Source: Eledone cirrhosa
Lineage: Eukaryota
NCBI GenBank assembly: GCA_964016885.1
Contig: OZ024742.1
Coordinates: 265,856,001 to 265,920,000, forward strand
Reading direction: 5' to 3'
DNA: 64,000 nucleotides
Shown piece by piece: positions 670 to 61,965 of this stretch. Both the position numbers and the translations under genes were made by a program. Each line of letters begins with the position of its first letter. Within the stretch, counting starts at the first letter, position 1. The notes under the pieces were generated by a model. It did not search any database. It was not told the origin of the DNA and saw nothing but the letters and a program-made list of their open reading frames with translations.

Positions 670-2780
670 GTTCTCTGATTTTCATTCCAGCCATGCATCA
701 AATCTACCAAGTGCAAGAGATCAACTTCTGTCGAATTAAGTAACACCATGTCGTCTGCAAATTCCAGCCGATTTATTTTACACCAGCTAGTCATGATTCC
801 TCTTCCAGCCCGGCTGAGCATATCAATCTTGTTCATGTAAATAATTGTTTCTACTTTTTGGCACAAAGCCAGCAATTACCCAGTACATTACTGGTACTTT
901 ATTTTATCGACCCCGTAAGGATGAAAGGCAAAGTTGACCTCGGCGGGATTTGAACTCAAAATGGAAAGGGCTGTAACTCTATGCGTCTAAGCATGACGTC
1001 CGGCCCTCTACCGATACTGCCAATCCACGTGACAGTACGCACCCTTGGCGGATTTCGACTCCCCCATGGTTTCGATTTAGCACCATTTATCCGAACACAA
1101 ATACTCAGGCATTTGTATAGAGACTTCAGGGCAGCAAGAAACTGACCATAGATCCCATACTCTTGCAAAACCTTCCGCAGCAAGTACCAGGGAACGTGGC
1201 CATGTCTTTTCAAGGTCGACAAAACAGAAATATACCTTTTAGCAGAAGTCCCCCGAATTCTCGAAGACCTGACGCAATGTAAATATTTGGTCGGCTGTAC
1301 TGCGTCCGGAGTGCAAACCGCACTATTCATCAGCTGGCTTGGACTCGACAATCTCCCTGCATCTCTTTGCCAGACATTTAGCATAGACTTTACCGAGGAG
1401 GCTTAACAAAGAGATCCCTCTGTAATTAGAACAATCTCTCTTGTCTCCCTTCTTGAAAACTGGGATTATCACTCCCGATTGCCATTGCTTAGGTACCTTT
1501 CCAGAGTTCCAGGCCACTCGACAAACACGAGCCAGCCAGAGAATGCCTTCTCAATTTAAGGCTTTTAACATCTCGTGCTAGGTTCCATATTCCACAGCAG
1601 CCTTGCCACATTTGAGTTCGTTAACTGCTCTGGTAACCTCAGCCTCTGAGAGATTAATCACCGCTCCCAAATGCACCTCGTATACATCAGAAGATGCTGT
1701 TGTGACACGGTTTAGGAGATCAGCAAATTATTTTCTCTACCTCGCGAAGATACACTTCTCTGAAGAGAAGAGAACCCCAGACACGTCCTATATAGCAGGT
1801 GTGGAGGAGGGCTTCTTATTACAAAGTCTATGGATGGTCTGTCAGAACACTTTATTTGCTGATCTGAAGTCGGATTCCCGCTTAATCCCAAATATTTCTC
1901 ATGTCTTAACTTTGGACACATTTACTATCTCTGCTGCAGTTTTTTGTGCCTGCTTATACCGCAAGTGCAAGCAGGAAACATATTTCCAAGCTAAGTTTTG
2001 TAGACCTTCTTCTTTGCTCAGATGGCATCTTTGACCTCTTGATTGAATATCCTCATGCCATCCGGTGCCGCACCAAGCCTCTGGTCCGCAGCATCTAAAA
2101 GCTGAAGCAGTAGCTGCTGAACTGAACAATCTACATTCTGTTTCAATGTCCTCAGTTTGCTCAGGGAGTGTTCTGAATTCGAATGCAATAATATCAGCAT
2201 ACCTGGTCCCGACTTCCTTATCCACCAATGCTTCCCACTTTATTCTGTAGGTCATCCTGGATCTGTCAGTTTTGTGGGTTTCTTTGGCTTTATGTAGTTT
2301 CAAGTTGCAGATAACTAGATGGTGATCTGTTGACAGCTCAGCCCCTCTCTTAACACGTATATCAAGCAAAGAACCTAAGAGACAATAACAAAATCAAATA
2401 TTGATCTCTGTCCCTGATTCCTCTTATACCATATATATTTATGGATGTCTCTGTCCTGGAAGAAGGTGTTCATAATAGAGTGTCCATTGCTAGAACAGAA
2501 GTTTAATAAGGCCCCTCCATTCGTATTTAGATCGGAGTCAACATTCCTTCCAATCAGTCCTTTCAATGTCAGATAGTCAGTGTCAGCATGTGCATTGACG
2601 TCTCCAGGTTCCAATTATCAAGGTTTGCTCCTTTGCCCCTAATCTTTGTGCGTCCATCCCACACCTCCCCGAAGGCCCATCGCCAGTTTTTCCGGCATGA
2701 AATGGAAACAGCAATATAATTTTCGAACCGGCCCCACTACTTAAGCCCCTTAACCCGTGCGAAGGTCGATGCGGTATGGT
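670..2780 (-). mobile_element. RTE-clade LINE, 5' part (APE endonuclease + RT N-terminal half), decayed, interrupted by a SINE
   Basis: Minus-strand fragments TLIIGTW (~2610-2630), GDVNAH, RVKRGAELSTDHHLV (APE), WQSGVIIPVFKKGDKRDCSNYRGISLLSLLGKVYAK, LEFADDMVLL (RT YADD-like); many stops and frameshifts. Boundaries approximate. Confidence 0.85.
843..1028 (-). mobile_element. tRNA-derived SINE (family recurring across window)
   Basis: Reverse complement carries GGATTGGCAGTATCGGTAGAG (A-box region), GAGTTCAAATCCCGCCGAGG (B box) and CTTTGCCTTTCATCCTTACGGGGTCGATAAAATAAAGTACCAG body; splits the RT region of the RTE LINE. Confidence 0.9.
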
Positions 2781-2894
2781 TCTTTTTTTTGTTTTCTTCA
2801 GTATATTGCAGTTGCAGTGTCAGTGGTCTTACCCATACCAGTCACAATCTGGAACTTTGTCAAACCCGCGAAACCTAGGGGTTTTTTTTAAAGA

Positions 2895-3522
2895 GATGTC
2901 GGTGCGGCGAAAACTGAGACGCTCGTTCTTTCAAGGAAGCCTGCGCGGTGCACACTACATGTGAATGGAGTTCCACTGAAGCAGGTAGAGAAGTTCAAGT
3001 ATCTTGGGGTCGTGTTCATGGGTGATGGAAGGTAGGAGGATTAAGTGCAAGAATTGCAGGGCTGGTACAGTGATGCACCAGTTTCAGTAATCAGAAAAAG
3101 GGAGGTAAGCGTAAAAACCAAACTCGCTTTCTTCAATACAGTTTTCGTGCCAACCCTTACATATTGTCTTGAATCTTGGGTAATGACTGAAAGAATACGA
3201 TCGCGAATACAAGCGGCCGAAATGGGGTTCCTCCGAAGGGTCTTTGAAGTAATGTTACTCGATAGAGTGCGTAGCTCGGAGATCAGAGAATTACTCCAGG
3301 TAGAGTCACTATTTCTCCGAATTGAGATCACAGCTCCGATACTACGGCATATGATTAGACTGCCTCAGGAAGGAATCACTGGACGGATTTTACAGGCAAA
3401 ACCAAATGGCAGGGATTATACAACTCAGGAGTAGAGCCTAGCAGATGGCTGGATAACATCCATGGTCTTGGCTGGTCACGCTTGGAGATTCAGCCGGATC
3501 AATTGGAGACGGTTAATTTCTA
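2895..3522 (+). mobile_element. RTE-clade LINE, 3' part (RT C-terminus) ending in a simple-repeat tail
   Basis: KTETLVLSRKP...VNGVPLKQVEKFKYLGVVF; ORF 3045-3434 with FVPTLTYCLESWVMTERIRSRIQAAEMGFLRR; followed directly by (AAG)n. Confidence 0.85.
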
Positions 3523-8840: not shown

Positions 8841-9027
8841 TGGGCGGTGGATTGGCAGTATCGGTAGAGGGTCAGGTCAGACGCCATGCTTTGTTGCATA
8901 GAGTTACGGCCCTTTACGGTCTGAGTTCAAATCCCGCCGAGGTTAACTTTGCCTTTCATCCTTACGGGGTCGATAAAGTACCAGTAATATACGGAGAATT
9001 TCTGGTCTTGTGCCAAATGTAGAAACA
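8841..9027 (+). mobile_element. tRNA-derived SINE with 13-bp TSD
   Basis: Family consensus; ATTAATATATACA at 8828-8840 and 9028-9040. Confidence 0.9.
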
Positions 9028-9924
9028 ATTAATATATACAGACTGATACATGTATGCACAAGTACACACACTCACACTTTAACAAGCAGATACACACTGA
9101 CACGGCATACTGACAAGCACACACACACGTATATTATATATACACATTGATATACTGATTCACATGCACTCACAACGATATACACACCAACATACGATAT
9201 ATCTGCACACAAGTTCTTTTCTCCCGCGGAAGTAAAATCAAACTTTTTCTCCTTTAGCATTATATGTTTTATTATGCAATTACAATTCGTTTACACTAAA
9301 CTCTATGCTATCTACATTTTCTTCTCACTTATATGTGCACGTAACAACCTAGTCTATTTTCAACACACACCATTCCTATTTCACACATACACTACGCTAT
9401 ACAGTTTTCCAATATCTAATATTATACAAGTACACAAAATATTCAGTTCAGATCGTACACACATATACACAAGTACATGTAGTTATATACCAAACTAAAA
9501 ACGTTACACTTAAACAAAAACAAGATTTAATTCACATATGCACACACAACGCCATGACATTAATTCCTTATTGAGTGGTAGGAGCGCTGTCGTTACAAAA
9601 CCCCTCCAGGGGGGGGGGGGTAAAAAGAACAAGAAAGAGGGAGTGACATAGAGATAAGAAGGCAGAATTGACCCCAGGGATGAATTGGGGTTTTATCTAT
9701 CGACCTCCAATGGATGACCCCACTGTAACCTGAACTCAGAGAGCAGAGCCGGAAAGAATAATGTGAAACATTCTATTCAATGTTCTAACCACTGTACCAA
9801 TTCACCACTAAAACGTAGCTTACCACATCTTTTTACAAAGAAAAGACCCAATCTAAATCGTACACACACACACACACACACACATATATATGTAACCCAT
9901 TAGCAACCACGCAGCACGTTTATT

Positions 9925-14786: not shown

Positions 14787-14975
14787 TGCGGTGGATTGGC
14801 AGTATCGGTAGAGGGTCGGACACCATGCTTTGCAGCAAAGAGTTACGGCCTTTTATGGTCTGAGTTCAAATCCCGCCGAGATTAACTTAGCCTTTCATCC
14901 TTATGGGGTCGATAAAATAAAGTACCAGTAATACCCTGGGATAATTGCTGGCCTTGTGCCAAAAGTAGAAACAAT
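14787..14975 (+). mobile_element. tRNA-derived SINE
   Basis: Near full-length match to the family consensus. Confidence 0.9.
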
Positions 14976-15706
14976 TATTTATCAATGAAAACAGAAAAAT
15001 ATGATAAAATAATATATACTATTACGAAAACACGTAAAGAAAGTACACACTGGGTGAATGTTCCCAGATGCCGTATAATTAATAACTCAAAATATCTCGA
15101 AATAGATACCCATATATTAATGGGGGAATACACAGTATATAATGTGGTTCTATAGTCGCTACTAGAATTCAACAATATGCATACGTTATACACATACCAG
15201 AACAAAATTGTACTTAATTTGTTTTTAATTACTAGTGCCTTAACATTGTTTCGTTATGATTCTGTAATATGGACAAGCCGCAATCATAAGGTTCCGGATT
15301 CGATCCTACAGCGTGGCATCTTGGATGAGAGTAATTTTTTTTAGTTTTGGGTTGACACAAGCAATGGGACTGATATCGGGGAGAGGAAAGTGGTTTGGAA
15401 GCCTGTCGAAGGGATTATAATTCAAAGAGCAGTTGTGTCACATACTGTCACGTTGAATCTAACTAGCAAGTTATACCAATCCTGTCTGATTCTCTCAAAA
15501 TTAAATAAACCATGAAAGAATACAAGATAACATGTAGCACACATTTACAGGAAAATCATAGTGATAGACCTCGAAATTAGATTTTAGCTAGTACAGCAAT
15601 CGGTCTTGTATGTCGTCGTAACAAAATGAAATTCCACATTACTATTACAAGTAAAATTACGCTCATACACCCAGAAACTTTTATTATATAACAATACACC
15701 ACTATA

Positions 15707-15895
15707 TGGTGGTGAATTGGCAGTATCGGTAGAGGGTCAGACGCCATGCTTTCTAGCATAGTTATGTCCCTTTATGATCTGAGTTCAAATCCCGCCGAGG
15801 TTAACTTTGCCTTTCATCCTTACGGGGGTCGATAAAATAAAGTACCAGTAATGCACTGGGGTAATTGCTGACCTTGTGTCAAAAGTAGAAACAAC
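15707..15895 (+). mobile_element. tRNA-derived SINE
   Basis: Near full-length match; ACTATATG on both sides (possible TSD). Confidence 0.9.
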
Positions 15896-16267
15896 TATAT
15901 GTCTGATCTGTGTGTTTATGTAGAGGAGAACTTCGTTTGCGACTGATACTGCTGTGTTACACTTTTCTAACTAAATGAGCAAGCACAGCAAGCAAACGTC
16001 ACCACCAAGTCTGGAATAGTAAGAAGCATTCTGGTCAACTCAAGTAGCTTGAGTAAGGCAGTGTTACATTTGATTGGAGGAAATGTCACGAAAAAGTGTT
16101 AATCAACTCACAGAATTCATTAACGGCATTCATAAATTTTCCAGCCAGTTATTATAACCAGCATGGTATTCACGAGCCACTTGACCACACCTAGTTTTCC
16201 TAGTACCAGATATACTAAGTAATATGTATCTTTGTGTTGTACTGTTCAGAATTACCGGCAATATGTT

Positions 16268-24735: not shown

Positions 24736-25091
24736 GCGCACGCGCACGCGCACACACACATACTCATTCTTCCAGGCATATGTACATGTGGATTATACAA
24801 ACTTATTTAAACATGAGCGGCCATTTAGACGCACACAAGGCTCACACACAGACATGCATACATACATACGCAAGTGTATACTCTTAGACATATATGCATA
24901 CACGTAGATATGCGTGCCCAATCTCATTTACAACTGCATATACACATACTGCACTTACATGCCACACATAGTTACCCATAGGCACACCCAGCAAACTCTT
25001 TGTAGATATCTTTCTACAAAGAGAAATGAATAGGCGTCATGTAAATTAGTCTGTGAATTTCAGTTAAGTTTTGGTTTGTGAGAGACATAAA

Positions 25092-25277
25092 TAATTGTTT
25101 CTACTTTTGGCACAAGGCCAGCAATTATCCAGTACATTACTGGTACTTTATTTTATCGACCCCGTAAGGATGAATGGCAAAGTGAACCTCGGCGGGATTT
25201 GAACTCAGATCGTAAAGGGACGTAACTATGCTGTAAAGCATGGCGTCCGACCCTCTACCGATACTGCCAATCTACCA
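25092..25277 (-). mobile_element. tRNA-derived SINE
   Basis: Reverse-complement match to the family consensus. Confidence 0.9.
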
Positions 25278-27826: not shown

Positions 27827-28650
27827 ATGGTGATGATGGCTGCCCCCTCGTTATCGAGTATGGCCATTGTACGATATACCATTATTGGTAATTATTAATT
27901 AATTCTATCTAAGGGCGGTGAATTGGCAGTATCGGTAGAGGGTCTGACATGCTTTCCAGCATAGTTACGTCCCTTTACGTTCTGAGTTCAAATCCCGCCG
28001 AGGTTAACTTTGCCTTTCATCCTTACGGGGTCGATAAAATAAAGTACCAGTAATGTACTGGGTAATTGCTGGCCTTGTGTCAAAAGTAGAAACAATTAAT
28101 TAATTCTATCGTGCAATGCCTGTGAGCAAAGATGTTTTTTTATATGAGGAAAGACTGTACACTGAGCCAATCCCACTCTCTGAGCGACAGTAGCTATAAC
28201 CCGAAAAGAAGAAAAGATCAACATCATCGGTAACTACTGAGCCGCAGGTTTTATGTCGGAGTTATCCCAGTTTCCTGAATTGCCTTCTCCTAGAAGAATG
28301 CCCTGACAAAGGCTAGGGATCCTTCACTCCCAGTGGTTTAACCGCGCGATCGGGTATCCAGCCCGACTATTTCTATGTCCCCGCGCATATACATATACAT
28401 ACACATGCATATGTACATGTGTATATACATATTTACACATTTTTGGATGGCCGTTGAGTCTTATGAGTTCTTCCGCCCTTTGTCAGGTTTTGTTTTTTGC
28501 CCTGCAGGGTGTCCAAAATCACCCTCCTCACCTTGGTGGGGGTGCCAGTTTAGTCGCCGACGACCCGACCATGCGGCAGGTTGTAGTGGGTTACATGTTA
28601 CCAGTAGCACTAAGAGTGATCCGACATACATACACACATACCTACATACT
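27827..28650 (+). mobile_element. Non-coding repeat copy 2, interrupted by a SINE; a third partial copy follows at ~28655-28970
   Basis: Homology to 25403-26015; ends in ACAT repeats. Copy 3 shares CCAATCCCACTCT.TGAGC and CGCAGGTTTTA with copy 2. Confidence 0.65.
27910..28094 (+). mobile_element. tRNA-derived SINE with 16-bp TSD
   Basis: ATTAATTAATTCTATC at 27894-27909 and 28095-28110. Confidence 0.93.
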
Positions 28651-29373: not shown

Positions 29374-30038
29374 ATAATAATGAAATACACACACATATTC
29401 ATATGTATATGCGTGTGTGGTGCCCGCCTTAACAAGCATCATCTCTGTGAGGTTGATACGGTTTATCAAGAGACCCCTCAGAAAAAATGACTGTTTCTTG
29501 ACGCGTTATAGCAAGTGAGTAAGTCTCAGAGGCGGAGGGAGAGATTAACAAGTGATACAGTGGTATAAAAAAAGGATTGTTTCTTTCGTAGCAAGTGAGA
29601 ATTTCTCGAGAGGCGAGGAGAGAGATAAACACATGATACAGTGATCACATAAGGGTAGTAAGGTGGACAGTTAGCGAATAACATATTTGCTAGAAAAAGC
29701 AGTTAATACACTCGTGGTTAACTCGACCATAGGGGAATTTGGGACAATATAATAATGAAATACACACACATATTCATATGGATATGTCCGCTTTAACAAG
29801 TTTTCCTCGATGACCGAAAGAACCAAAATAACTAAAATAATTAAATTAACTCCATAATCAGAGCTATTTATCAAATTTCAAAATAGGAAATAATAGACAA
29901 ACATATACCTATTTTTTCTTCAAAGTCCCGACTGCAGTTTCGCCGATCCGTGTGCACTGATTTCTGCACTTTAAAAGTGCATCATCGCTGTGAGGTTGAT
30001 AATATATATATATATATATATATATTATCAACCTCACA
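29374..30038 (-). mobile_element. Retrozyme-like non-coding element, ~543-nt unit with terminal redundancy and split hammerhead
   Basis: GCATCATC(T/G)CTGTGAGGTTGAT at 29436-29457 and 29979-30000 (period 543); circular permutation of 49141-49643; HHR 3' half at 30000-29925, 5' half at 29474-29436. Confidence 0.75.
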
Positions 30039-32043: not shown

Positions 32044-32258
32044 CGGTGGATTGGCAGTATCGATAGGGGGTCGGACGCCATGCTTTGAAACATAGAGCTA
32101 CGGCCCTTTGCTGTCTGAGTTCAAATCCCGCCGAGGTTAACTTTGCCTTTCATCCTTACGGGGTCGATAAAATAAAGCACCAGTAACGTACTGGGGTCAA
32201 TTTAATCGACCCCCCCCCCCAAAAAAAAAAGTACTGGCCTTGTGCCTATACTAGAAAT
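32044..32258 (+). mobile_element. tRNA-derived SINE
   Basis: Family consensus followed by (ATT)n. Confidence 0.9.
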
Positions 32259-36729: not shown

Positions 36730-36879
<150 letters not shown>

Positions 36880-36996
36880 TAAACGGAATAGAAAATGCTG
36901 ACAAATTGTTCACAGTTGAAAAATGGTTTAATTAGGAATAAAAGAGTATTAGTGATTGTATGGGTTAGTATTCAGTTGTGGTTTTAAGTTTTTAAG

Positions 36997-37035
36997 TTTT
37001 TACCGGTTGCGCATTTCTAAATGCTTTTCAAAAAT
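36997..37035 (-). ncRNA. Minimal hammerhead-like motif in the PLE pLTR (second copy at 41246-41283, +)
   Basis: UUU UUGAAAA GCAUUU AG AAAUGC GCAA CCGG UA AAA: U3-A8 core, 6-bp stem II, palindromic CCGG stem III; GCAA replaces GAAA. Confidence 0.5.
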
Positions 37036-37362
37036 AATTTTGAGATAGAGTGTCCGTGCTGTTTGCTCTGATCTGATTAGTTTTGGGAATTCTACCTGTT
37101 TTTATGTTAAAAAAGTGGCTCCAGCGTTATTTTTGTGTTGCAAATATGCTTGTGGTCAAAACAATTTTGATTGGTCGGTAGAGGTCATGTGAATGTAAAA
37201 AGTTGATTTTGCGCCAAGACTGTTTTTATGTTAAAAAAGTGGCTCCAGCAAAAATTCTTGGTCAAAACAATTTTGATTGGTCGGTAGAGGTCATGTGGAT
37301 AAAAAATTGGTTTTGCGCCAAGATTGAGAAATGACTCTTTCACAACAAATATGTGTGTGTGT

Positions 37363-37449
<87 letters not shown>

Positions 37450-37451
37450 TG

Positions 37452-37486
<35 letters not shown>

Positions 37487-37559
37487 AGTAGTAGTAGTAA
37501 GGTGTTCGATGCTGCGACAATGGCCAGCAGCGATGTGTGTCAAATGGCTATTAAGATAA

Positions 37560-37640
<81 letters not shown>

Positions 37641-37950
37641 GCAGAGTCATTCGAAGGTCAAAAGATATTTTTCAACTTTTGTCTTATACGGAGAAGTGCG
37701 TGTGTGTGTTTGTGTGTGTGTATAAGTCTCTTTGTATGTTGATGTATGCGTGTGTATGTGTTTGTGTACATATGTATGTGTGTGTATGTGTGTGTGTGTG
37801 GGTGGACCAGTATTTTTTTCCCCTGGTAAAATGGTGTTCATTATTAGATTTTTTCAGTAAAATCGGTTCTCTTAATAGAACATCAAAAATCTAAACAATA
37901 AAAGGTGTGAAATGATATTCACTATATATATATACACACATACATATATT

Positions 37951-37991
<41 letters not shown>

Positions 37992-38134
37992 TACATACAT
38001 ATATATGCACATATATTTTTTTTGTATTGCACCATAGAGCATGTGTGTTTACGTGTGTCATTGTGTTTATATGTGGGTAGAGATGTGTGCTGATGTAGGT
38101 ATGTATGTTGACGTGTGTATGTTGTGGGTTCGTC

Positions 38135-38848
38135 TTAGGGAGAAGTGTTTAGACGGGGTCCGTATTTGTTAATGAAGTAAGATTCCTTGCTGATGCGCTG
38201 GGTGTGGGTGGCATTATCTTTAAATTTGTAGAGGGGAAAGATTATGAAGTTGGGATGATTTTGGGCGGCACAGGTATCAATGTGTTCACTCAGTGGTATT
38301 TTCCTGTATTCCCATATTTTAATTTGGGATCTATGGACAGTGATGCGTTGGCGGAGGCTGTTTTTGGTCTGGCCTATGTATTGTTCTCGACAACCTGAAC
38401 AAGTTAATACATATATTAGATTTTCCGATGCACATGTGAAATTGTGTTTTACTATAAAACGTTGTCCATCTTTGAAATAGAATTCTGAACCCTCTATTAG
38501 GTTGATGCAAATGCCACAGTTGGGTCTATCGCATTTTTTTACTGTGGGTTTCGTTGTTGTGGTTGGCAGTACTTTGGCATGTGTTAAGATGTTTTTCATT
38601 GACTTGGATTGTCTTTTGCTCTTTATGATATCGTGTGTTCGTAGAATTTGGTTCATTCTATGGTCCCTTTTCAATACAGGGATGTTCTGGAGGATGGTGT
38701 CAAAGGCCTCATTGTTGAGGGGGTTGTGTGTGGAGATGTATGGAAGAGCTTTTAGTTTTGGTTGATTTACTTTAGGGTGTCTAAGGTCCTGGGTACTGAG
38801 TTTTAGGGCACGTTGGATTCCATTGTCAATTAGTGATGCAGGGTAGTC
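38135..38848 (-). pseudogene. Inverted duplicate of the PLE GIY-YIG region
   Basis: ORF 38135-38674 is nearly identical to the C-terminus of ORF 38951-40225. Confidence 0.93.
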
Positions 38849-40225
38849 AACCTATACTCCAACATCCCCCACAACCTAGGAATAGAAGCTATCCAATTCT
38901 GGCTGGATAATTTCCACAATGAACTCCCACAACGCATCAAAAAAGAATTCGTGATAGAGGGACTCAAATTTATCTTGGAGAACAATTACTTCGTTTTCAA
39001 TAACAAACCCTACAGGCAGAAATCTGGGACCGCTATGGGAACGAAAACAGCCCCTACTTATGCCAACCTAGTCATGGGATACCTGGAAATCACCATCTAC
39101 ACTAAAGTCCTAAACAAATTTGGAAACACCCTCCACTTACACATTGAAAGGAACTGGAAGCGATATCTAGATGACTGCTTCATCCTTTGGCACGAAAACA
39201 TCGAAAAACTTAAAGAATTTCACACCCTTATAAATGGGCTCAACACAAATATTAACTTCACGATGGAATACAGCCAGCAACAACTCCCCTTCCTCGACAT
39301 CCTCATTAAGATCCATAACAAAAAAATAGAAACAGACATATACTACAAGCCCACAGACTCCAAGCAATATCTCCCCTTCAACTCTTGCCACCCTAGACAC
39401 GTTAAAATTAATATTCCCTACAACTTAGCCAAGAGAATCTGTACTATAGTCTCCAATAAAAACATCTGCTACTTACGGCTACAAGAACTAAAGGACACAC
39501 TCATAGGCAGGGACTACCCTGCATCACTAATTGACAATGGAATCCAACGTTCCCTAAAACTCAGTACCCAGGACCTTAGACACCCTAAAGTAAATCAACC
39601 AAAACTAAAAGCTCTTCCATACATCTCCACACACAACCCCCTCAACAATGTGGCCTTTGACACCATCCTCCAGAACATCCCTGTATTGAAAAGGGACCAT
39701 AGAATGAACCAAATTCTACGAACACACGATATCATAAAGAGCAAAAGACAATCCAAGTCAATGAAAAACATCTTAACACATGCCAAAGTACTGCCAACCA
39801 CAACAACGAAACCCACAGTAAAAAAATGCGATAGACCCAACTGTGGCATTTGCATCAACCTAATAGAGGGTTCAGAATTCTATTGCAAAGATGGACAACG
39901 TTTTATAGTAAAACACAATTTCACATGTGCATCGGAAAATCTAATATATGTATTAACTTGTTCAGGTTGTCGAGAACAATACATAGGCCAGACCAAAAAC
40001 AGCCTCCGCCAACGCATCACTGTCCATAGATCCCAAATTAAAATACGGGAATACAGGAAAATACCACTGAGTGAACACATTGATACCTGTGCCGCCCAAA
40101 ATCATCCCAACTTCAGAATCTTTCCCCTCTACAAATTTAAAGATAATGCCACCCACACCCAGCGCATCAGCAAGGAATCTTACTTCATTAACAAATACGG
40201 ACCCCGTCTAAACACTTCTCCCTAA
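38849..40225 (+). CDS. PLE reverse transcriptase + Cys-rich linker + GIY-YIG endonuclease (5'-truncated, uninterrupted)
   Basis: Frame open from the junction (NLYSNIPH); GTAMGTKTAPTYANL, KRYLDD, LPFLD, YYKPTDS..YL...SCHP; CDRPNCGIC; NLIYVLTCSGCREQYIGQT...LRQRITVH. Confidence 0.95.
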   Translation, partial: NLYSNIPHNLGIEAIQFWLDNFHNELPQRIKKEFVIEGLKFILENNYFVFNNKPYRQKSGTAMGTKTAPTYANLVMGYLEITIYTKVLNKFGNTLHLHIERNWKRYLDDCFILWHENIEKLKEFHTLINGLNTNINFTMEYSQQQLPFLDILIKIHNKKIETDIYYKPTDSKQYLPFNSCHPRHVKINIPYNLAKRICTIVSNKNICYLRLQELKDTLIGRDYPASLIDNGIQRSLKLSTQDLRHPKVNQPKLKALPYISTHNPLNNVAFDTILQNIPVLKRDHRMNQILRTHDIIKSKRQSKSMKNILTHAKVLPTTTTKPTVKKCDRPNCGICINLIEGSEFYCKDGQRFIVKHNFTCASENLIYVLTCSGCREQYIGQTKNSLRQRITVHRSQIKIREYRKIPLSEHIDTCAAQNHPNFRIFPLYKFKDNATHTQRISKESYFINKYGPRLNTSP

Positions 40226-40544
40226 GACGAACCCACAACATACACACGTCAACATACATACCTACATCAGCACACATCTCTACCCACATATAAACACAAT
40301 GACACACGTAAACACACATGCTCTATGGTGCAATACAAAAAAATATATGTGCATATATATGTATGTATATATGTATATATATATATATATATGTAGTGAA
40401 TATATGTATGTGTGTATATATATATAGTGAATATCATTTCACACCTTTTATTGTTAAAATTGTTGATGTTCTATTAAGAGAACCGATTTTACTGAAAAAA
40501 TCGAATAATGTACACCATTTTACCAGGGGGAAAAAAATACTGGT

Positions 40545-40605
<61 letters not shown>

Positions 40606-40731
40606 CACAAACACATACACACGCGTACATCAACATACAAAGAGACTTATACACACACACACACACACGCGCGCACTTCTCCGTATAAGACAAAAGCTGA
40701 AAAATATCTTTTGACCTTCGAATGACTCTGC

Positions 40732-40774
<43 letters not shown>

Positions 40775-40843
40775 ATCTTAATAGCCATTTGACACACATC
40801 GCTGCTGGCCATTGTCGCAGCATCGAACACCTTACTACTACTA

Positions 40844-40931
<88 letters not shown>

Positions 40932-41442
40932 TTGTTGTGAAAGAGTCATTTCTCAATCTTGGCGCAAAATCAATTTTTTATCCACATGACCTCTACCGAC
41001 CAATCAAAATTGTTTTGACCAAGAATTTTTGCTGGAGCCACTTTTTTAACATAAAAACATTCTTGGCGCAAAATCAACTTTTTACATTCACATGACCTCT
41101 ACCGACCAATCAAAACTGTTTTGACCACAAGCATTTTTGCAACACAAAAATAACGCTGGAGCCACTTTTTTAACATAAAAACAGGTAGAATTCCCAAAAC
41201 TAATCAGATCAGAGCAAACAGCACGGACACTCTATCTCAAAATTATTTTTGAAAAGCATTTAGAAATGAGCAACCGGTAAAAACTTAAAAACTTAAAACC
41301 ACAACTGAATACTAACCCATACAATCACTAATACTCTTTTATTCCTAATTAAACCATTTTTCAACTGTGAACAATTTGTCAGCATTTTCTATTCCGTTTA
41401 CCAATATATAATAACTTGTGTGTTACACCTCTATTCTTTTAA

Positions 41443-41466
<24 letters not shown>

Positions 41467-41473
<7 letters not shown>

Positions 41474-41940
41474 CAGGGAGTGTAAATACAGAAAATATCC
41501 TAAAAAATATATAAAAAATATAGATTCCAAAAAATTCACTGTACTTACTATATGTGCCCTTACGGTGATTTCAGATCCCAAACAAATCGATAAACCAAGC
41601 GGATTTCTATTGAGAAAGAGATCCTCGTCAGAAGGCTTTTCTCTCTCGGAGAATATAAAATTCCCGAGTTCAAATTACAAACTGGCGCCATACAAAACTG
41701 CCTCAGAATGACAATAAATGAATGATGAAACACATATAGTAAGTACAGTAAATGCTTGGAATCTATATTTTTATATATTTTTTAGGATATTTTCTCTGTT
41801 TACACTCCCTGATTTTATAGGTTCTGGCTTGTTAATTTATTAACTTGCCATTCAACTACATTAGCATACGGTCGGACTATACTTATGTCCCTATGTGTGT
41901 GTATTAATTACATGTAGGAACATATACCTTTAATAAATAT
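41467..41940. mobile_element. Small non-coding element with ~90-bp inverted repeats enclosing a hammerhead
   Basis: 41467-41556 is inverted relative to 41731-41820; flanked by (TA)n. Confidence 0.75.
41556..41636 (-). ncRNA. Type I hammerhead ribozyme with intact core
   Basis: GCCUU CUGACGA GGAUCUC-(~38 nt)-GGGAUCU GAAA UCACCG UA|AGGGC: 5-bp stem I, 7-bp stem II, minimal stem III, GUA triplet. Confidence 0.75.
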
Positions 41941-41954
41941 ATATATATATATTT

Positions 41955-42552
41955 ATATATGAAAAAATGGGGAGAAGAATACTGCAGGTTGCACATGGAT
42001 AACATGTTATAAAATGAGTCCCTCATCAGTGATTTGCCAACGATCATAGATATTTCATTACATTAAAAATCATATACCTCACGTTGGTGCAATAATAACT
42101 AAATTAAGTTATTAGGACAATTAAAACGCGTAAAGCGAGTGAGACAAGTAAACAACAAAGAGGAAAGCTAACCGTAGATAGGAAGGGTACAAGCTACATA
42201 GTTATTCTGTCAGCTTAAGCTGGGTGAATATATGAGCGCGTAGAAAAAAGACCTTTCGAGATGAATCCAAATGTAAGAAAGAAGGAAATTGTATTCGTCG
42301 CGAACGGGTGAAGTGAGAAGGGGAGAAACAGTGAGTGAGTGAGTGGAAGTGTGAGGAAGAGGTCAGTAGAGAGAAAGTGTTAACTGACATGACAGAGGGG
42401 GCAAAAGAAAGTAAGAGAAACAGTGAGAACGAGGGAGCAGTAAGAGAGAGAGAGAGAAAAAAACAGAATCGCAGTTTAGGTAAATATATGTGAAAAAATG
42501 GGGAGAAGAATACTGCAGGTTGCACATGGATAACACGTTATAAAATGAGTCC
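41955..42552 (-). mobile_element. ~531-nt non-coding unit with terminal direct repeat and a degenerate HHR core
   Basis: GAAAAAATGGGGAGAAGAATACTGCAGGTTGCACATGGATAACA.GTTATAAAATGAGTCC at 41961 and 42492; CUGAUGAG on the minus strand at 42029-42022; (TA)n both sides. Confidence 0.6.
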
Positions 42553-42799
42553 ATATATATATATATACACACAGTCGTGACTGTTTAAGAGGATACCATT
42601 CTAGTTTGTTTCACAGCCTTTGTCAACTGATAGATTGCCTAATGAGGTATTTACTCCAACAGCCAAACTCGTTTTAGAATTGTTCGTTATATTCTGAGTA
42701 AAATTTATATGTAAACAAATGACCACCCAACATTTATATTCAAACAGAAGACCACACAACATGTATATATAAGCAGATAGCCATTCCACTTCTATATTT

Positions 42800-49140: not shown

Positions 49141-49643
49141 GGTCATCGAGCAAACCTTGTAAAGGCGGACACCACACACACACATATACATATGAATATG
49201 TGTGTGTATTTCATTATTATATTGTCCCAAACTCCCCTATGGTCGAATTAACCACGAGTGTATTAACTGCTTTTTCTAGCAAATACGTTATTCGTTCACT
49301 GTCTACCTTACTACCCTTCTCTGACCACTGTATCGTGTTTATCTCTCTCCTCGCCTCTCTAGAAATTCTCACTTGCTACGAAAGAAACAATCCTTTTTTT
49401 TTTACCACTGTATCATGTGTTAATCTCTCCCTCCGCCTATGAGACTTTCTCACTTGCTATAACGCGTCAAGAAACAGTCCTTTTTTCTGAGGGGTCTCTT
49501 GATAAACCGTAGCAACCTCACAGCGATGGTGCACTTTTAAAGTGTAGAAATCGGTGCACACGGATCGGCGAAACTGCAGTCGGGACTTTGAAGAAAAAGT
49601 AGGTATATTTTTGTCTATTATTTCCTCATAGTTTGTAATTTGA
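49141..49643 (+). mobile_element. Retrozyme-like non-coding element (permuted relative of 29374-30038)
   Basis: High similarity to the reverse complement of 29436-30000 with a different start point; flanked by (TA)n; contains a complete HHR. Confidence 0.78.
49494..49586 (+). ncRNA. Type I hammerhead variant (U3-A8 core, large stem II insertion, palindromic minimal stem III)
   Basis: GUCUC UUGAUAA ACCG-(~56 nt)-CGGC GAAA C UGCA G UC|GGGAC; predicted cleavage after C49581. Confidence 0.68.
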
Positions 49644-49678
49644 TATATATATATATATATATATTATAAAGAGTCGGG

Positions 49679-56637: not shown

Positions 56638-56687
<50 letters not shown>

Positions 56688-56688
<1 letters not shown>

Positions 56689-56853
56689 GCTACTTTTGGC
56701 ACAAGGCCAGCAATTATCCTAGTGCATTACTTGTACTTTATTTTACCGACCCCGTAAGAATGAAAGGCAAAGTTAACCTCGGCGGGATTTGAACTCAGAA
56801 TGACAGGGGCCGTAACTCTATGCGTCAAAGCATAGTGTCCGACCCTCTACCGA
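56688..56853 (-). mobile_element. tRNA-derived SINE followed by an (AAT)n/(ATT)n tract
   Basis: Reverse-complement match to the family consensus. Confidence 0.88.
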
Positions 56854-56991
56854 TAAATAATAAATAGGGAACAAAGAATCAATATTGTATCATATACATA
56901 TTTATTTACATATTACATATGTTTCACTGCCGACTAGCTCGAGGAATATATATAAAACTGTTTGAGTATGTAAGCATTCTTTGGTTTCTTT

Positions 56992-57140: not shown

Positions 57141-60100
57141 TTAACATTTATCTTTAAATGACTGAATGACTGACGAATTTAAAGAAAATTCGTTATAAGA
57201 ACATTTAATTTGTTTTACTGAAGTGCTTTTGGATACACAATGTTTTTTTGTTTTTCCTTCTGGTGCGTACACGAATAAATCAGAAGGTTTACCGACGCGT
57301 GAGCAAGCCACATACAGCTGTCCATGTGAGAAGCATGGATTTTCTAAATTTAGTCCACACACTTGTAGCGATTGTCCTTGTGCTTTGTTGATAGTCATTG
57401 CAAAGGCGAGTCGCACTGGAAACTGCAAACGTTTGAAATCGAATGGCGTATCTGTTGGAATGATTGGGATGCGTGGCAAGAGTACATCTTCTACTTTAAA
57501 TTTTCCATTTAAAATTGTAGCCTCGATGATATTGTTCATCGTCTTTTTCACTGAAAGTCTGGTACCGTTGCAAAGTTGTGGTGGATTGATGTTTCGGAGA
57601 AGGATGATAGGCACGCCAATTTTCAATGTTAAAATGTGCGGTGGCATGCCTGGCAAATCAAGTGAATTCAAGAATTCAATTGGATAATTGATAATTTCGT
57701 CTTGATTCATTACAGTATCGATGGACTTATACGTTGTCGCTTCGCCTGGTATTTCGTTTTGAATGCTGAAATTAATGGCATTGACATCGGTGTTTTTGGC
57801 TGCTAATATAGCACTGATGATTTTTGTAATGCTGCGCAATATTTGGGAACACTTTGTGAATCAGTTCGTCTCTGGTTGCCGTGATTCTACAGAAGTTTGT
57901 TGGCAATGTGATACATTTTGTGGAATCATCGATTACCATTTTCCCATTCCCAATATCCAGCAATTGTTTTGTGAAACGTTCAGCGGATGCGTCATTTTGT
58001 AGTTGTACACGCATATTGTTTTTTAAAGTTAATTTCTGTACGTGTCGCCATAAAACTGATGATTTGAGACATGCATTAAGCTCATCAGCGGGTGTTGATC
58101 GCGGTATAATTGGTAGAGTTTGTCGAAAATCACCAGACAATAAAATGAGTGTGCCACCGAAGAGCTGTTCATTTCCTTTCAAATCTTTTAGCGTATTATT
58201 AAGCGCTTCCAATGATTGTTTATGCTCCATAGTACATTCGTCCCATATAATGATTTTACATGATTGGAGTACTTTACCTATACCAGAATTTTTGGTAATA
58301 TTGCATGTTGATGTCTCAGCAATTTGCATATTCAATGGCAATTTCAGGGCTGAATGTGCTGTTCGGCCACCATCTAAAAGAGTTGCCGCAATTCCAGATG
58401 ATGCGATTGCCAGTGCAATATTATTTTCTGATCGTATAGTTGCCAAAATAAGTGAAATGAGAAACGTTTTGCCTGTACCACCGGGCGCATCTATAAAATA
58501 CAATCCGCCGCTTTGACTTATAATTGCCTGCATAATTTGGTCATATACTATGCGTTGTTCTGGTAGCAATTTGGGAAGATTCGTTTGAACAAATGTACCC
58601 AATTCGGCGACATCAAAGTTTGTTTCTCGTTGCAAATCACGATCGAAAATGTCGTTTACAGATCGATTCGGCGCAGGCATTCCCAATAGTACCAATGTTT
58701 TGTTAGCGATTGCTAAACATATGACCTCAATGGAAACCAATGCTTCATTATACACATTTGGTGTGAATTGAATATTCATATTTTGATTTGTTGCACGCAA
58801 ACGATGTAGGATGTCTTCACTCATGTAGTCTTTATATTTTTCCCAAAGATCTTTTGGATTTGATGGGAAGCACGTTGTCAATATTATTGAGAATAATGTG
58901 CGTATTTGCTTTGGTCGAGCAGTATTCGATGCATCAGCGAGTGAAGTGTCCCAATGTCCATCATTTTCAAGAAGATTTAATTCTTGGCAAGCTTGACGAT
59001 AAGTGGCACATACTTGACCGTTTACTGTTCTCAATTCTTGGAATGATGTCGGTCCACGTATGTTAATTAACAACAATCGCAAATAAAAGCATTCTGCATT
59101 ATTTGGGTGAACAGTGTACAAACGGCCTAACGCGTCGGTCGAATATAAATTTGGATGTCCTTCAACTACTTTACCCTGTTTGCGACGTTTAAACTTTTTC
59201 GTTGGTGTATTCCATGTGTAATATGTTGGCACTTCAGAATAAAGTAGTGTCTTTGCAAACACATCTTCGCTGCACAATGAGAAAAACGCAGTTAACGTTG
59301 TTGGCGGTGGTGTCAGTGCCCTTGCACGTACATTTTCAGTTGTGAAGTATACGCGCTGTTCATGTTCAAGGTGCACCGCCAAATGAACAACTGTTGGATG
59401 TCGATGATGGATTGGAAATGATAAAATGCGCCATACTGCTTCATTACTACTAATGTAGCGTCCCAGTTGGTTTTGGTCGATTTCATCGATAAGTGTAGTT
59501 GCATTGCACACTCCAAAGACTGCCATATCGCTTCCTTTGTTGATATATTTGCAAATGTACTTGATCGCTTTCACCGAATTGCAATACTCGACATTGATGT
59601 GTGCTTTGAACGTCTTCGAGAGTAACGGTGAATATGGTACAACCCAACGATTATTGACTTCAACATAATTGTTTCGTACTTTTAAAGTGATGGATTTGCC
59701 GCCATCTTCAGTTGCTCGTCGACGATAGAGTGGATATCCGTCATTGCCAGTGATAGTGTCGGCAAGTAAGTCTTTTGGGTATTGTTTCGTGCATTTCCCA
59801 TCAGACATGCATGGTGAATTGTTGTTGAGTAAGCCACATGGACCATGAATCATGTTTTTAGTGATGACTTCAAATAAGTCTGGATCAACGTTGACATCTG
59901 GTATTTCTGCTGAGATGATTTGATCAATTTGATCTGGTGTGACTTTTTCAATCAACCAAATCAAAATGTGTGCATGTGGCAATCCTCTTTTTTGCCATTC
60001 AATGGAATACATCCAACAGCGTGTCTCTCCAAAAACATGATGCTTGACAATGAAATCGATTAAAGATTTCAATTTTTGTTTGAACACACGCGCTGTAATA

Positions 60101-61649
60101 TCATGACGATCCGAAGATGATTGACCAGGTAACAAAAGTTCTTTAATTTCATCCCATGATTGCATGTGAATGTAATGAACAAATCTGGACGGCCATATGC
60201 GCGAACATATGTCATTGCATCTTGTGCGTATTCATGCATGTGCCGTGGACTCCCTGTAAATGTAGCCGGCAGTATGACCATGTTCCCCAATTCATTAGGA
60301 TTCATATTGCCATCATTAAGAATGGCATCACGTAAATGAATGTACTCTTCTGAACGTAGCTCGGTTTGATTCAATCGAATGTAGAGAAGTCGTTCGGTTT
60401 CGATTTTTGCATACATATCGACAATGTATTGATGGAACAATTGTCGACATTTCAAAATATGATTTTCACCGTTTTCACGAATCATTAATCTATATGAATA
60501 ATAATTCATGGCACTGACTTTCTTATTCGTTTCCTCATCTGTTTCTGGATTTCTCAGTTTGATGTTGAAATGATATCCATCTTCTCCTTGCCAAAATAAA
60601 ATTGGATATTGCAATCCATCGTATGACCGATGCGTTTCTGAGACTCGCTGAACATCACCATTTCTGCGGTGAAGAATTATATCACGCGAGTTAAATTCTT
60701 CACCTACTATAACGATCGCCACTTCATCAATTGTTGGTGCATTGTACTGTCTTTGATGTTGGCCAACAGGTGTTTTGTCTGCTCTAACTACAATTGTGTA
60801 GTCATCATTTGGCATTTGTTCCAGGGCAGCTCTGAACAATCTAATTAATTTGTTGTGTTGATTGAATAAAGTTTGTAATGCAGTAACAATTTCTCGTTTA
60901 GTTCCCCTATTGAATTTGCAACGTTGATCTATTTGGTCATCAGTGTTTCCCATGAAATAAATTTGAAGAAATTTGTGATCTGCGTCCGGCAGTGGTAGTA
61001 GTGATCCAGCACGATGATAAATTTGCCCTTGCACTTTGAATGTTGGCATGTAATTCTCGCGCACGATATTTGTTGCACCGAACGATGTCATTTGGAAACA
61101 TGAATTGTACTTGCGTATGTTTGCCAAGAAATGTTTAGATTCGCTTGTGTCACCTGATACTAACGTTGATAATGGTTCAGGTGGTGGATGTAATTCTGGC
61201 AATTTCACTTTTCCACCCGAGCAGCACATTCCTGGTGTTTCATTTTTAAATTTGAGGGCACCACAATACCCGCATAATTTATCCATTTTTCCAATAATCA
61301 CACTTGGATGAAGACTGTAATCACAATTTGAATCGTAATGAAATGCACCAAGATTGAAATCATCGTGCAGTATTCTTCTTGTGAGAGCATTGCGTAGTCG
61401 ATTCGTTTCCAATCTTGCTTTCCGTTGCTCGTCTGTTTCAGATGAACGGGCTTGAGCAGTTCTTACTCGAACGGTTTGCAATCTTGCTTCCCGTTGCTCG
61501 TATGTTTCAGATGAACGGGCTTGAGCAGTTCTTACTCGAACGGTTTCCAATCGTGATTCCCGTTGCTCGTATGTTTCTGAAGCTCGTAATGCATATTTTT
61601 TCGTTGCTTGAGGGGTAGATTGACCAATCACTCGTCGTTTGGGAGGCAT
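57141..61649 (-). pseudogene. Helitron Rep/Helicase split by frameshifts near 60160 and 57810
   Basis: Zn finger CGYC...CC; PDLFITFTCN; HUH motif QKRGLPHAHILIW; YICKYINK; Walker A DAPGGTGKT; IIWDE; GDFRQ; RLQFPVRLAFAMTINKAQGQS; HGQLYVACSRV (PIF1-like). Confidence 0.95.
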
Positions 61650-61658
61650 AATTGAATA

Positions 61659-61965
61659 GAAAATATTTTATCACAATCACTCTACCGAAATGAGAAGTAG
61701 TGTGAAATACGTATGAAGAACTCAATGTAATCGAAATGTAGAAGGAGTCATAACCAATATGTATGTGTTGATTGATGATATAAACAATTGTAAAAACAGA
61801 GTGAAAAAATAAAGGAAAATATTTTATCACAATCACTCTACCGAAATGAGCAGTAGTGTGAAATACGTATGAAGAACTCAATGTAATCGAAATGTAGAAT
61901 GAGTCATAACCAATATGTATGTGTTGATTGATGATATAAACAATTGTAAAAACAGAGTGAAAATA
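61659..61965. repeat. 156-bp tandem duplication upstream of the Helitron ORF
   Basis: GAAAATATTTTATCACAATCACTCTACCGAAATGAG at 61659 and 61815. Confidence 0.92.

Follow-up and report, generated by a model that had tools for sequence, protein, structure and literature searches.

Beside a Neptune element in the genome of Eledone cirrhosa lies a short stretch of DNA that reads, on its minus strand, as a hammerhead ribozyme, and it raises the question of what kind of element carries this motif, whether the motif is likely to cut, and which enzyme brought the element there. A first-pass annotation of the window (the whole stretch of 64,000 nucleotides analysed here) had described an intact-core hammerhead inside a small inverted-repeat element and had linked it to the adjacent Neptune. 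As judged by comparison with related loci, the element appears to have arisen by insertion of a non-coding hammerhead repeat with a unit of 491 nt, and to be by now a decayed copy with two arms.

The element in the window and its hammerhead motif

What the window contains is part of a non-coding tandem repeat with a monomer of 491 nt, present in two arms; the monomer is numbered here from the first base 3′ of the predicted cut. The sense arm (41465–41732, minus strand; 94% identity to the consensus) comprises monomer positions 320–491 followed by 1–94, where it stops at the short end of the family. The inverted arm (41731–41935, plus strand) comprises positions 5–205, stops at the long end of the family and shares two bases with the sense arm at the join. 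Each arm runs out into a TA run: a (TA)n target at 41445–41466, common to the element and the end of the neighbouring Neptune, and a TA-rich run at 41936–41957 at the long end. The 112 nt leading from the short to the long end site (41821–41935, plus strand) form a “tail”, for which hairpins are predicted in the consensus. The inverted duplication of about 90 nt that had been placed at 41731–41820 is present, with 92% identity between 41466–41556 and 41731–41819, and is merely the overlap of the two arms, which differ from each other by about 8%. The inversion is thus real, but the element is larger than the small one first described, its plus arm extending to 41935.

The motif itself, of type I and of the Penelope type, occupies 41636–41556 of the minus strand. 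Stem I pairs GCCTT (41636–41632) with AGGGC (41560–41556) over 5 bp; the core, CTGACGA (41631–41625) and GAAA (41572–41569), is intact; and stem II, of 6–7 bp with an extension, is formed by GGATCTC and GGGATCT (7 pairs) and closes a loop of 38 nt. After GAAA follow TCACCG, TA, and then AGGGC, with the predicted cut between 41561 and 41560. The first reading of the core and of stems I and II therefore stands, but stem III has degenerated: its insert TCACCG (41563–41568) is three changes away from the palindrome CCGCGG of the family consensus, carried by 50 of 79 copies, and the predicted minimum fold of the motif is not the active one (folding z 0.2). With a strict descriptor of type I motifs, the window gives this one site, versus one match in 100 block-shuffled windows, and for a covariance model built on the clade the motif is the sole match in the window. 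The Rfam hammerhead models, proposed earlier as a check, gave no match for the window, for a 511-nt region or for five related loci. The statement that the element is unrelated to a 543-nt family, presumed to be the repeat at 29436–30001 and 49141–49649, is borne out within the comparisons made here: elsewhere the window shows only similarities of 14–34 nt (E 0.03–0.3), and the clade model has that single match.

The motif had been called the best candidate here for an active ribozyme. On folding predictions, the window copy would instead be a poor ribozyme candidate, and a poor choice for a cleavage assay, because the stem III palindrome CCGCGG is replaced by TCACCG, which is found in 1 of the 79 complete motifs of the first locus set, the window copy alone. 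The predicted stem III self-duplex amounts to −0.3 kcal/mol versus −14.1 for CCGCGG, so that no dimer helix is predicted; the active monomer fold is predicted to lie 10 kcal/mol above the minimum (4 for the consensus); and the clade covariance model finds one motif in the locus, without a tandem partner. Moreover, motifs of this type are reported to be poor cutters as monomers (PMC4209133; PMC7229834), and eight of nine predicted Xenopus dimers were reported without cleavage (10.64898/2026.07.22.740005). Activity of the window copy, as a monomer or with a partner in trans, is therefore very improbable despite the intact core and stems I and II and the A-U and U·G pairs remaining in stem III; the copy probably does not cut and is among the less likely cutters of its family.

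Other features were noticed in the window. A region at 41954–42552, which starts in the TA run past the long end, contains a 68-nt direct repeat 531 nt apart and has a very high contig depth. At 42076–42020 on the minus strand, GAAA stands upstream of CTGATGA, i.e., hammerhead parts in reversed order. A 29-nt tandem satellite of about 80–90 units begins at 42608, and Helitron-like Rep/PIF1 helicase frames lie on the minus strand at 57772–61667. The two repeat copies at 29436–30001 and 49141–49649 are about 90% alike and bear a degenerate hammerhead-like core. Finally, a SINE-like dispersed repeat of about 190 nt has at least eight copies at 83–93% identity (838–1028, 8844–9031, 14790–14982, 15708–15897, 25080–25276, 27914–28110, 32044–32195, and 56680–56855).

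The repeat family and its sister subfamilies

A collection of copies from the genome, suggested as a further check, showed that the motif is present in other copies of the repeat. The first locus set was drawn from the 3.0-Gb genome (75 loci, 61 distinct), its loci being picked by similarity to queries that take in the hammerhead region; the second set includes 40 further loci chosen with short queries and mapped to three references. The monomers are arranged head to tail, with a consensus of 491 nt (37% GC) and a period of 487–496 nt, and the arms extend to about two units at most; two motifs within one arm, some of them damaged, occur in 6 of the 61 loci. The longest stop-free frame in the circularised consensus is 76 aa, so the repeat has no coding capacity. 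Copies of the first set diverge by about 5% from the consensus, and in the second set the window's consensus is the best reference for 12 of the 40 loci, the other 28 being closer to sister monomers of 487 nt, which are 73–84% alike.

A shared 30-mer has 968 exact matches in the genome, and a 24-mer specific to the window's subfamily, held by 24 of the 61 loci of the first set, has 60. By simple scaling from the first-set sample and these exact matches, the window's subfamily comprises roughly one to a few hundred loci and the clade about 2,000–3,000; the 2,286 and 2,200 search candidates were ruled out as a subfamily copy number by the low count of the 24-mer. Contigs of three sequencing runs from one sample confirm the repeat in DNA, with the contig depth pointing to the sister families. 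The flanks of some loci of the collection (L109, L108/L086, L125, and L084) contain other compact canonical type I hammerheads, which represent further families; in that of L109 three of them stand in tandem at a spacing of about 500 nt.

The 79 complete motifs of the first set (three incomplete ones were dropped, and two more were misregistered by the core-scoring script) include 57 in which the script finds the core kept and 24 with all features. In a comparison of 32 motifs, drawn from about six subfamilies, double changes are seen at 7 of 14 pairs (59 double changes, the covarying cells tracing to about six subfamily events inherited by many copies). In the same motifs 91.5% of cells are paired, a level seen in 0 of 500 shuffles and compared with 15–57% in slid controls; the pattern used to extract them prescribed the core and some of stem I, which partly builds in the invariance of the core, and left stem II unconstrained. 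Because stems I and II covary across the sister subfamilies, the fold was under selection in their parent lineages or RNAs. Helix I of the family has 5 bp and helix II 6–7 bp with a long extension, and stem III reads CCGCGG, CCGCGCGG or CCGATTCGG across subfamilies, being mostly palindromic. Through this palindromic stem, cleavage by the family ribozyme is predicted to occur in a dimer, and the Penelope-type architecture is reported to work weakly, as dimers (PMC4209133).

The block best conserved among the sister subfamilies is a predicted hairpin upstream of the hammerhead, rather than the ribozyme (monomer 371–410; 41645–41684 in the window, minus strand), for which a promoter or protein-binding role may be supposed. 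Some words in it resemble polymerase III promoter boxes.

Two fixed arm ends and a proposed route of insertion

Beyond the cleavage site, the arms of the repeat stop in (TA)n at either of two fixed positions, at 94 nt and at 206 nt. In the 61 loci, 83 of 98 arms end in two site classes, 47 at +86 to +99 (exactly +94 in 43) and 36 at +193 to +212 (exactly +206 in 25), with 15 ending elsewhere; of 124 arm ends at the two sites, 114 lead into TA. In the 35 head-to-head loci of the first set, each of the 22 that can be fully classified combines a short and a long end (p = 2.4e-7), the other 13 having one unclassifiable end. The second set adds 6 of 6, two sister-family loci among them, with 5 more unclassifiable, so that the combination holds in 28 of 28 classifiable loci. 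Such pairs correspond to the Penelope signature of a tail at one end and are likely the mark of a Penelope-type enzyme. The earlier proposal that the hammerhead family is non-autonomous and integrates with the geometry of Penelope elements is supported in this respect. Head-to-head junctions overlap by 1–7 bases in 33 of 46 cases, although BLAST overlaps somewhat overstate microhomology. The 112-nt tail between the two sites has predicted hairpins (z −4.6), similar ones being predicted in the sisters, and the circular monomer shows strong predicted self-pairing (z −7.9). A G-C/A-U switch in the pair formed by tail positions 159 and 193 (p 3e-7) was discarded as covariation, since many unpaired sites are linked equally, which indicates one event.

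Both arms of a locus derive from the same sequence variant: at polymorphic sites, 293 of 338 comparisons agree within a locus versus 26681 of 48776 (55%) between loci, and arms or successive units of one locus differ by 6.1–6.4% versus 9.2% between loci. The cut site is crossed by 111 of 124 arms, and twice by 17 of them, a share inflated by the hammerhead-containing queries. A special meaning of the inversion's start at the cleavage site is not supported, as 5′ ends show no accumulation at that point (6 at +1 to +17 versus 5.3 expected, and 8 at −20 to −1 versus 6.0, none significant), nor do they at the short site (8 versus 6.6, not significant). Since the arms run through the cut site without such a pile-up, the template RNA was uncut or religated. 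An RNA-editing scar that would mark an RNA stage was also sought, and no excess was found (A>G 0.0136 versus T>C 0.0137).

It is quite probable, in our judgement, that the element is a decayed two-armed insertion that ends in TA microsatellites at the two fixed sites, and that a Penelope-like protein with RT and GIY-YIG domains, supplied in trans, is the likely enzyme behind its reverse transcription from RNA. By this route, the endonuclease would cut both strands of (TA)n, and a probably dimeric RT would extend both broken ends, beginning one cDNA at +94 and, at the opposite end, the other at +206; the template would be either a multimer left uncut or a circle closed by religation, with about even odds. 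Both cDNAs would stop at scattered places and be joined head to head via 1–7 shared bases. In Penelope-like elements, the tail has been equated with the segment that separates two start sites of the RT, cutting and extension have been shown for both strands, and a dimer has been predicted (PMC11167929); for autonomous elements, a tail on one inverted pLTR is reported, as is a pLTR sufficing for mobilisation in trans (PMC3846280; PMC8557442).

Two other origins of the paired arms have to be weighed against this one. Fold-back self-priming on an antisense template, rather than priming from both break ends, has been put forward for head-to-head Penelope structures in rotifers (PMC3846280) and would also account for the variant common to both arms; it is an unlikely source of the inverted pairs here, as it leaves the short and long ends of 28 of 28 loci unexplained, the junctions are not palindromes, and the arms start no more than 40 nt apart in 5 of 35 pairs, against about 6 by chance in a hand count. 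The repeat could also be the pLTR of an unsampled autonomous Penelope-like family, the window copy being its 5′-truncated end, and the ribozyme does have the build of a Penelope one, with a short stem I, a long stem II and a palindromic stem III (PMC4209133), Xenopus retrozymes are reported to be related to pLTRs (10.64898/2026.07.22.740005), and a Neptune-B ORF lies upstream on the same strand at two loci. However, the long arms continue into a further monomer instead of an ORF, 40 of 40 loci in the second set are without a Penelope ORF match, the 5′ flanks of 25 single-armed loci have no common junction sequence save for the Neptune-B pair, and the ends of Neptune-B have their own tail of about 50 nt, without the monomer. 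An ORF with RT and GIY-YIG flanked by the repeat occurs in none of 101 loci except the two Neptune-B chimeras, and the exact chimeric junction matches the genome once, which also ruled out a chimeric Neptune-B subfamily. The pLTR origin is accordingly rated a little lower still than fold-back. In five of the 35 two-armed loci (L016, L018, L029, L041, and L063) the arms start 26–32 nt apart in monomer coordinates, possibly reflecting a minor fold-back route, a suggestion made post hoc.

Candidate drivers and relation to known systems

For the preferred insertion by an enzyme supplied in trans, the nearest candidate is the neighbour itself, Neptune-A (36876–41444, plus strand), a young two-armed Penelope-like element outside the hammerhead element, which follows the one-end tail rule, its tail of 35 nt being confined to the 41444 end. 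Neptune elements are recognised by a C-terminal GIY-YIG with a CX2-5CxxC linker, and Neptune-A has RT, GIY-YIG and a C-X4-C-xx-C linker, a linker type common to Neptune and Nematis (PMC8557442). Its direct adjacency across one TA run, its identical geometry and its abundant, active-looking family (150 scored matches with 99% protein identity, 8,509 exact end matches in the genome, and many intact frames of 784 aa) would suit a driver. However, its arms differ at 5 of 832 bases (99.4% alike) versus about 92% identity for the hammerhead element, no sequence is shared with the monomer in 38 Neptune-A loci (the window's own aside), and the similarity of its ends to the monomer stays within the range of shuffles. 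There is thus little chance that Neptune-A mobilised the hammerhead element or inserted along with it, although an ancestor of Neptune-A may have done so, and the link drawn earlier is not supported; the two most likely became neighbours when Neptune-A inserted later into the same TA run.

The likeliest driver, though one we would put at somewhat below an even chance, is an older second family, Neptune-B, with about 72% protein identity to Neptune-A, 617 exact end matches, and copies about 90% alike, which appears by sequence divergence to be of similar age to the hammerhead repeat. At 4 of 60 loci (window aside) a Neptune-B copy stands no more than about 1.5 kb away on the same strand, versus about 0.3 expected from its abundance by a post hoc estimate, and at two of them the monomer is joined directly to the short end of Neptune-B. 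None was found near the monomer in the 40 loci of the second set, nor the monomer in 29 other Neptune-B loci, and the end-motif similarity of Neptune-B to the monomer is not significant (19 of 300 shuffles). A consistent hammerhead was sought with a relaxed descriptor and the clade model in the Neptune-A loci and, downstream of the Neptune-B 5′ end, in the Neptune-B loci, and none was found. At locus L114 (2229–4697; G000:C9:1619228-1621696), the short (3′) end of a two-armed Neptune-B runs directly into exactly one full monomer, and the opposite end of this Neptune-B carries its tail.

By testable sequence criteria, the clade can be assigned to the non-LTR retrozymes. As in metazoan non-LTR retrozymes (PMC7229834; 10.64898/2026.07.22.740005), the unit is non-coding and arranged head to tail, with a type I hammerhead and a weak palindromic helix III, the GC content is below 50%, the predicted circle is strongly self-paired, and dispersed monomers and short arrays coexist with Penelope-like elements. 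The unit of 487–491 nt exceeds the 170–400 nt given in PMC7229834 and falls within the 51–972 nt of 10.64898/2026.07.22.740005. The ribozyme here is of the Penelope type, unlike the canonical 6-bp/4-bp form of these retrozymes: its helix sizes are non-canonical (helix I 5 bp, helix II 6–7 bp), and canonical helix sizes with loop 1–loop 2 contacts were not found, as with the Rfam match. Mussel retrozymes also lack such contacts (PMC7229834), which are therefore typical of the class and not strictly defining. Two consecutive units with whole motifs are the mark of an “active” retrozyme in 10.64898/2026.07.22.740005, a mark that the window copy, with its one motif, does not bear. Two-armed insertions with two fixed ends are not described in the available text of either report, and the word “inverted” is absent from PMC7229834.

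Parallels with Penelope-like elements are equally close. Their pLTR hammerheads and solo pLTRs have a helix I of 4–5 bp, a helix II of 7–8 bp and a small palindromic helix III, with many covarying families per genome and motif pairs on opposite strands 100–700 bp apart (PMC4209133); unlike them, the repeat has no ORF-bearing parent among the loci collected here, and its units are tandem monomers. Insertions of Penelope, Neptune and Naiad elements (PMC8557442; PMC3846280; PMC11167929) likewise show an inverted 5′-truncated copy, a tail at one end, (TA)n targets and two RT start sites, the first about 85–95 nt past the hammerhead cut, as here; the tail of 112 nt compares with a reported 30–40 nt, and the present element codes for nothing. 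Non-autonomous Chlamys elements, e.g., MRC1, are a reported parallel, but resemble their parents at the 3′ end (PMC8557442; PMC3846280; PMC11167929). A literature search, mostly below full-text level, found no cephalopod retrozyme report and no two fixed ends in a non-autonomous hammerhead repeat.

Thus, the repeat would work like a non-LTR retrozyme mobilised by Penelope machinery. We put forward more tentatively, as a reading with perhaps one chance in a few, that these hammerhead RNAs of 490 nt form a radiating clade which lives as a parasite of Neptune elements without a canonical hammerhead of their own. The RNA structure would then determine where a Penelope RT dimer primes its two cDNAs, and this dimer would copy a single RNA, probably circular, into the two ends of the break; the folded 112-nt spacer is conserved across subfamilies only 73–84% alike. 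Penelope-like elements have been named as likely drivers of retrozymes (PMC7229834; 10.64898/2026.07.22.740005), and for animals this role is proposed and unproven. Retrozyme class and Penelope geometry are both published, and what the present clade adds is one more well-defined test case: because it offers exact start sites (+94 and +206), a structured tail of unusual length and a family that is a candidate for the driver, it makes the proposal testable in vitro.
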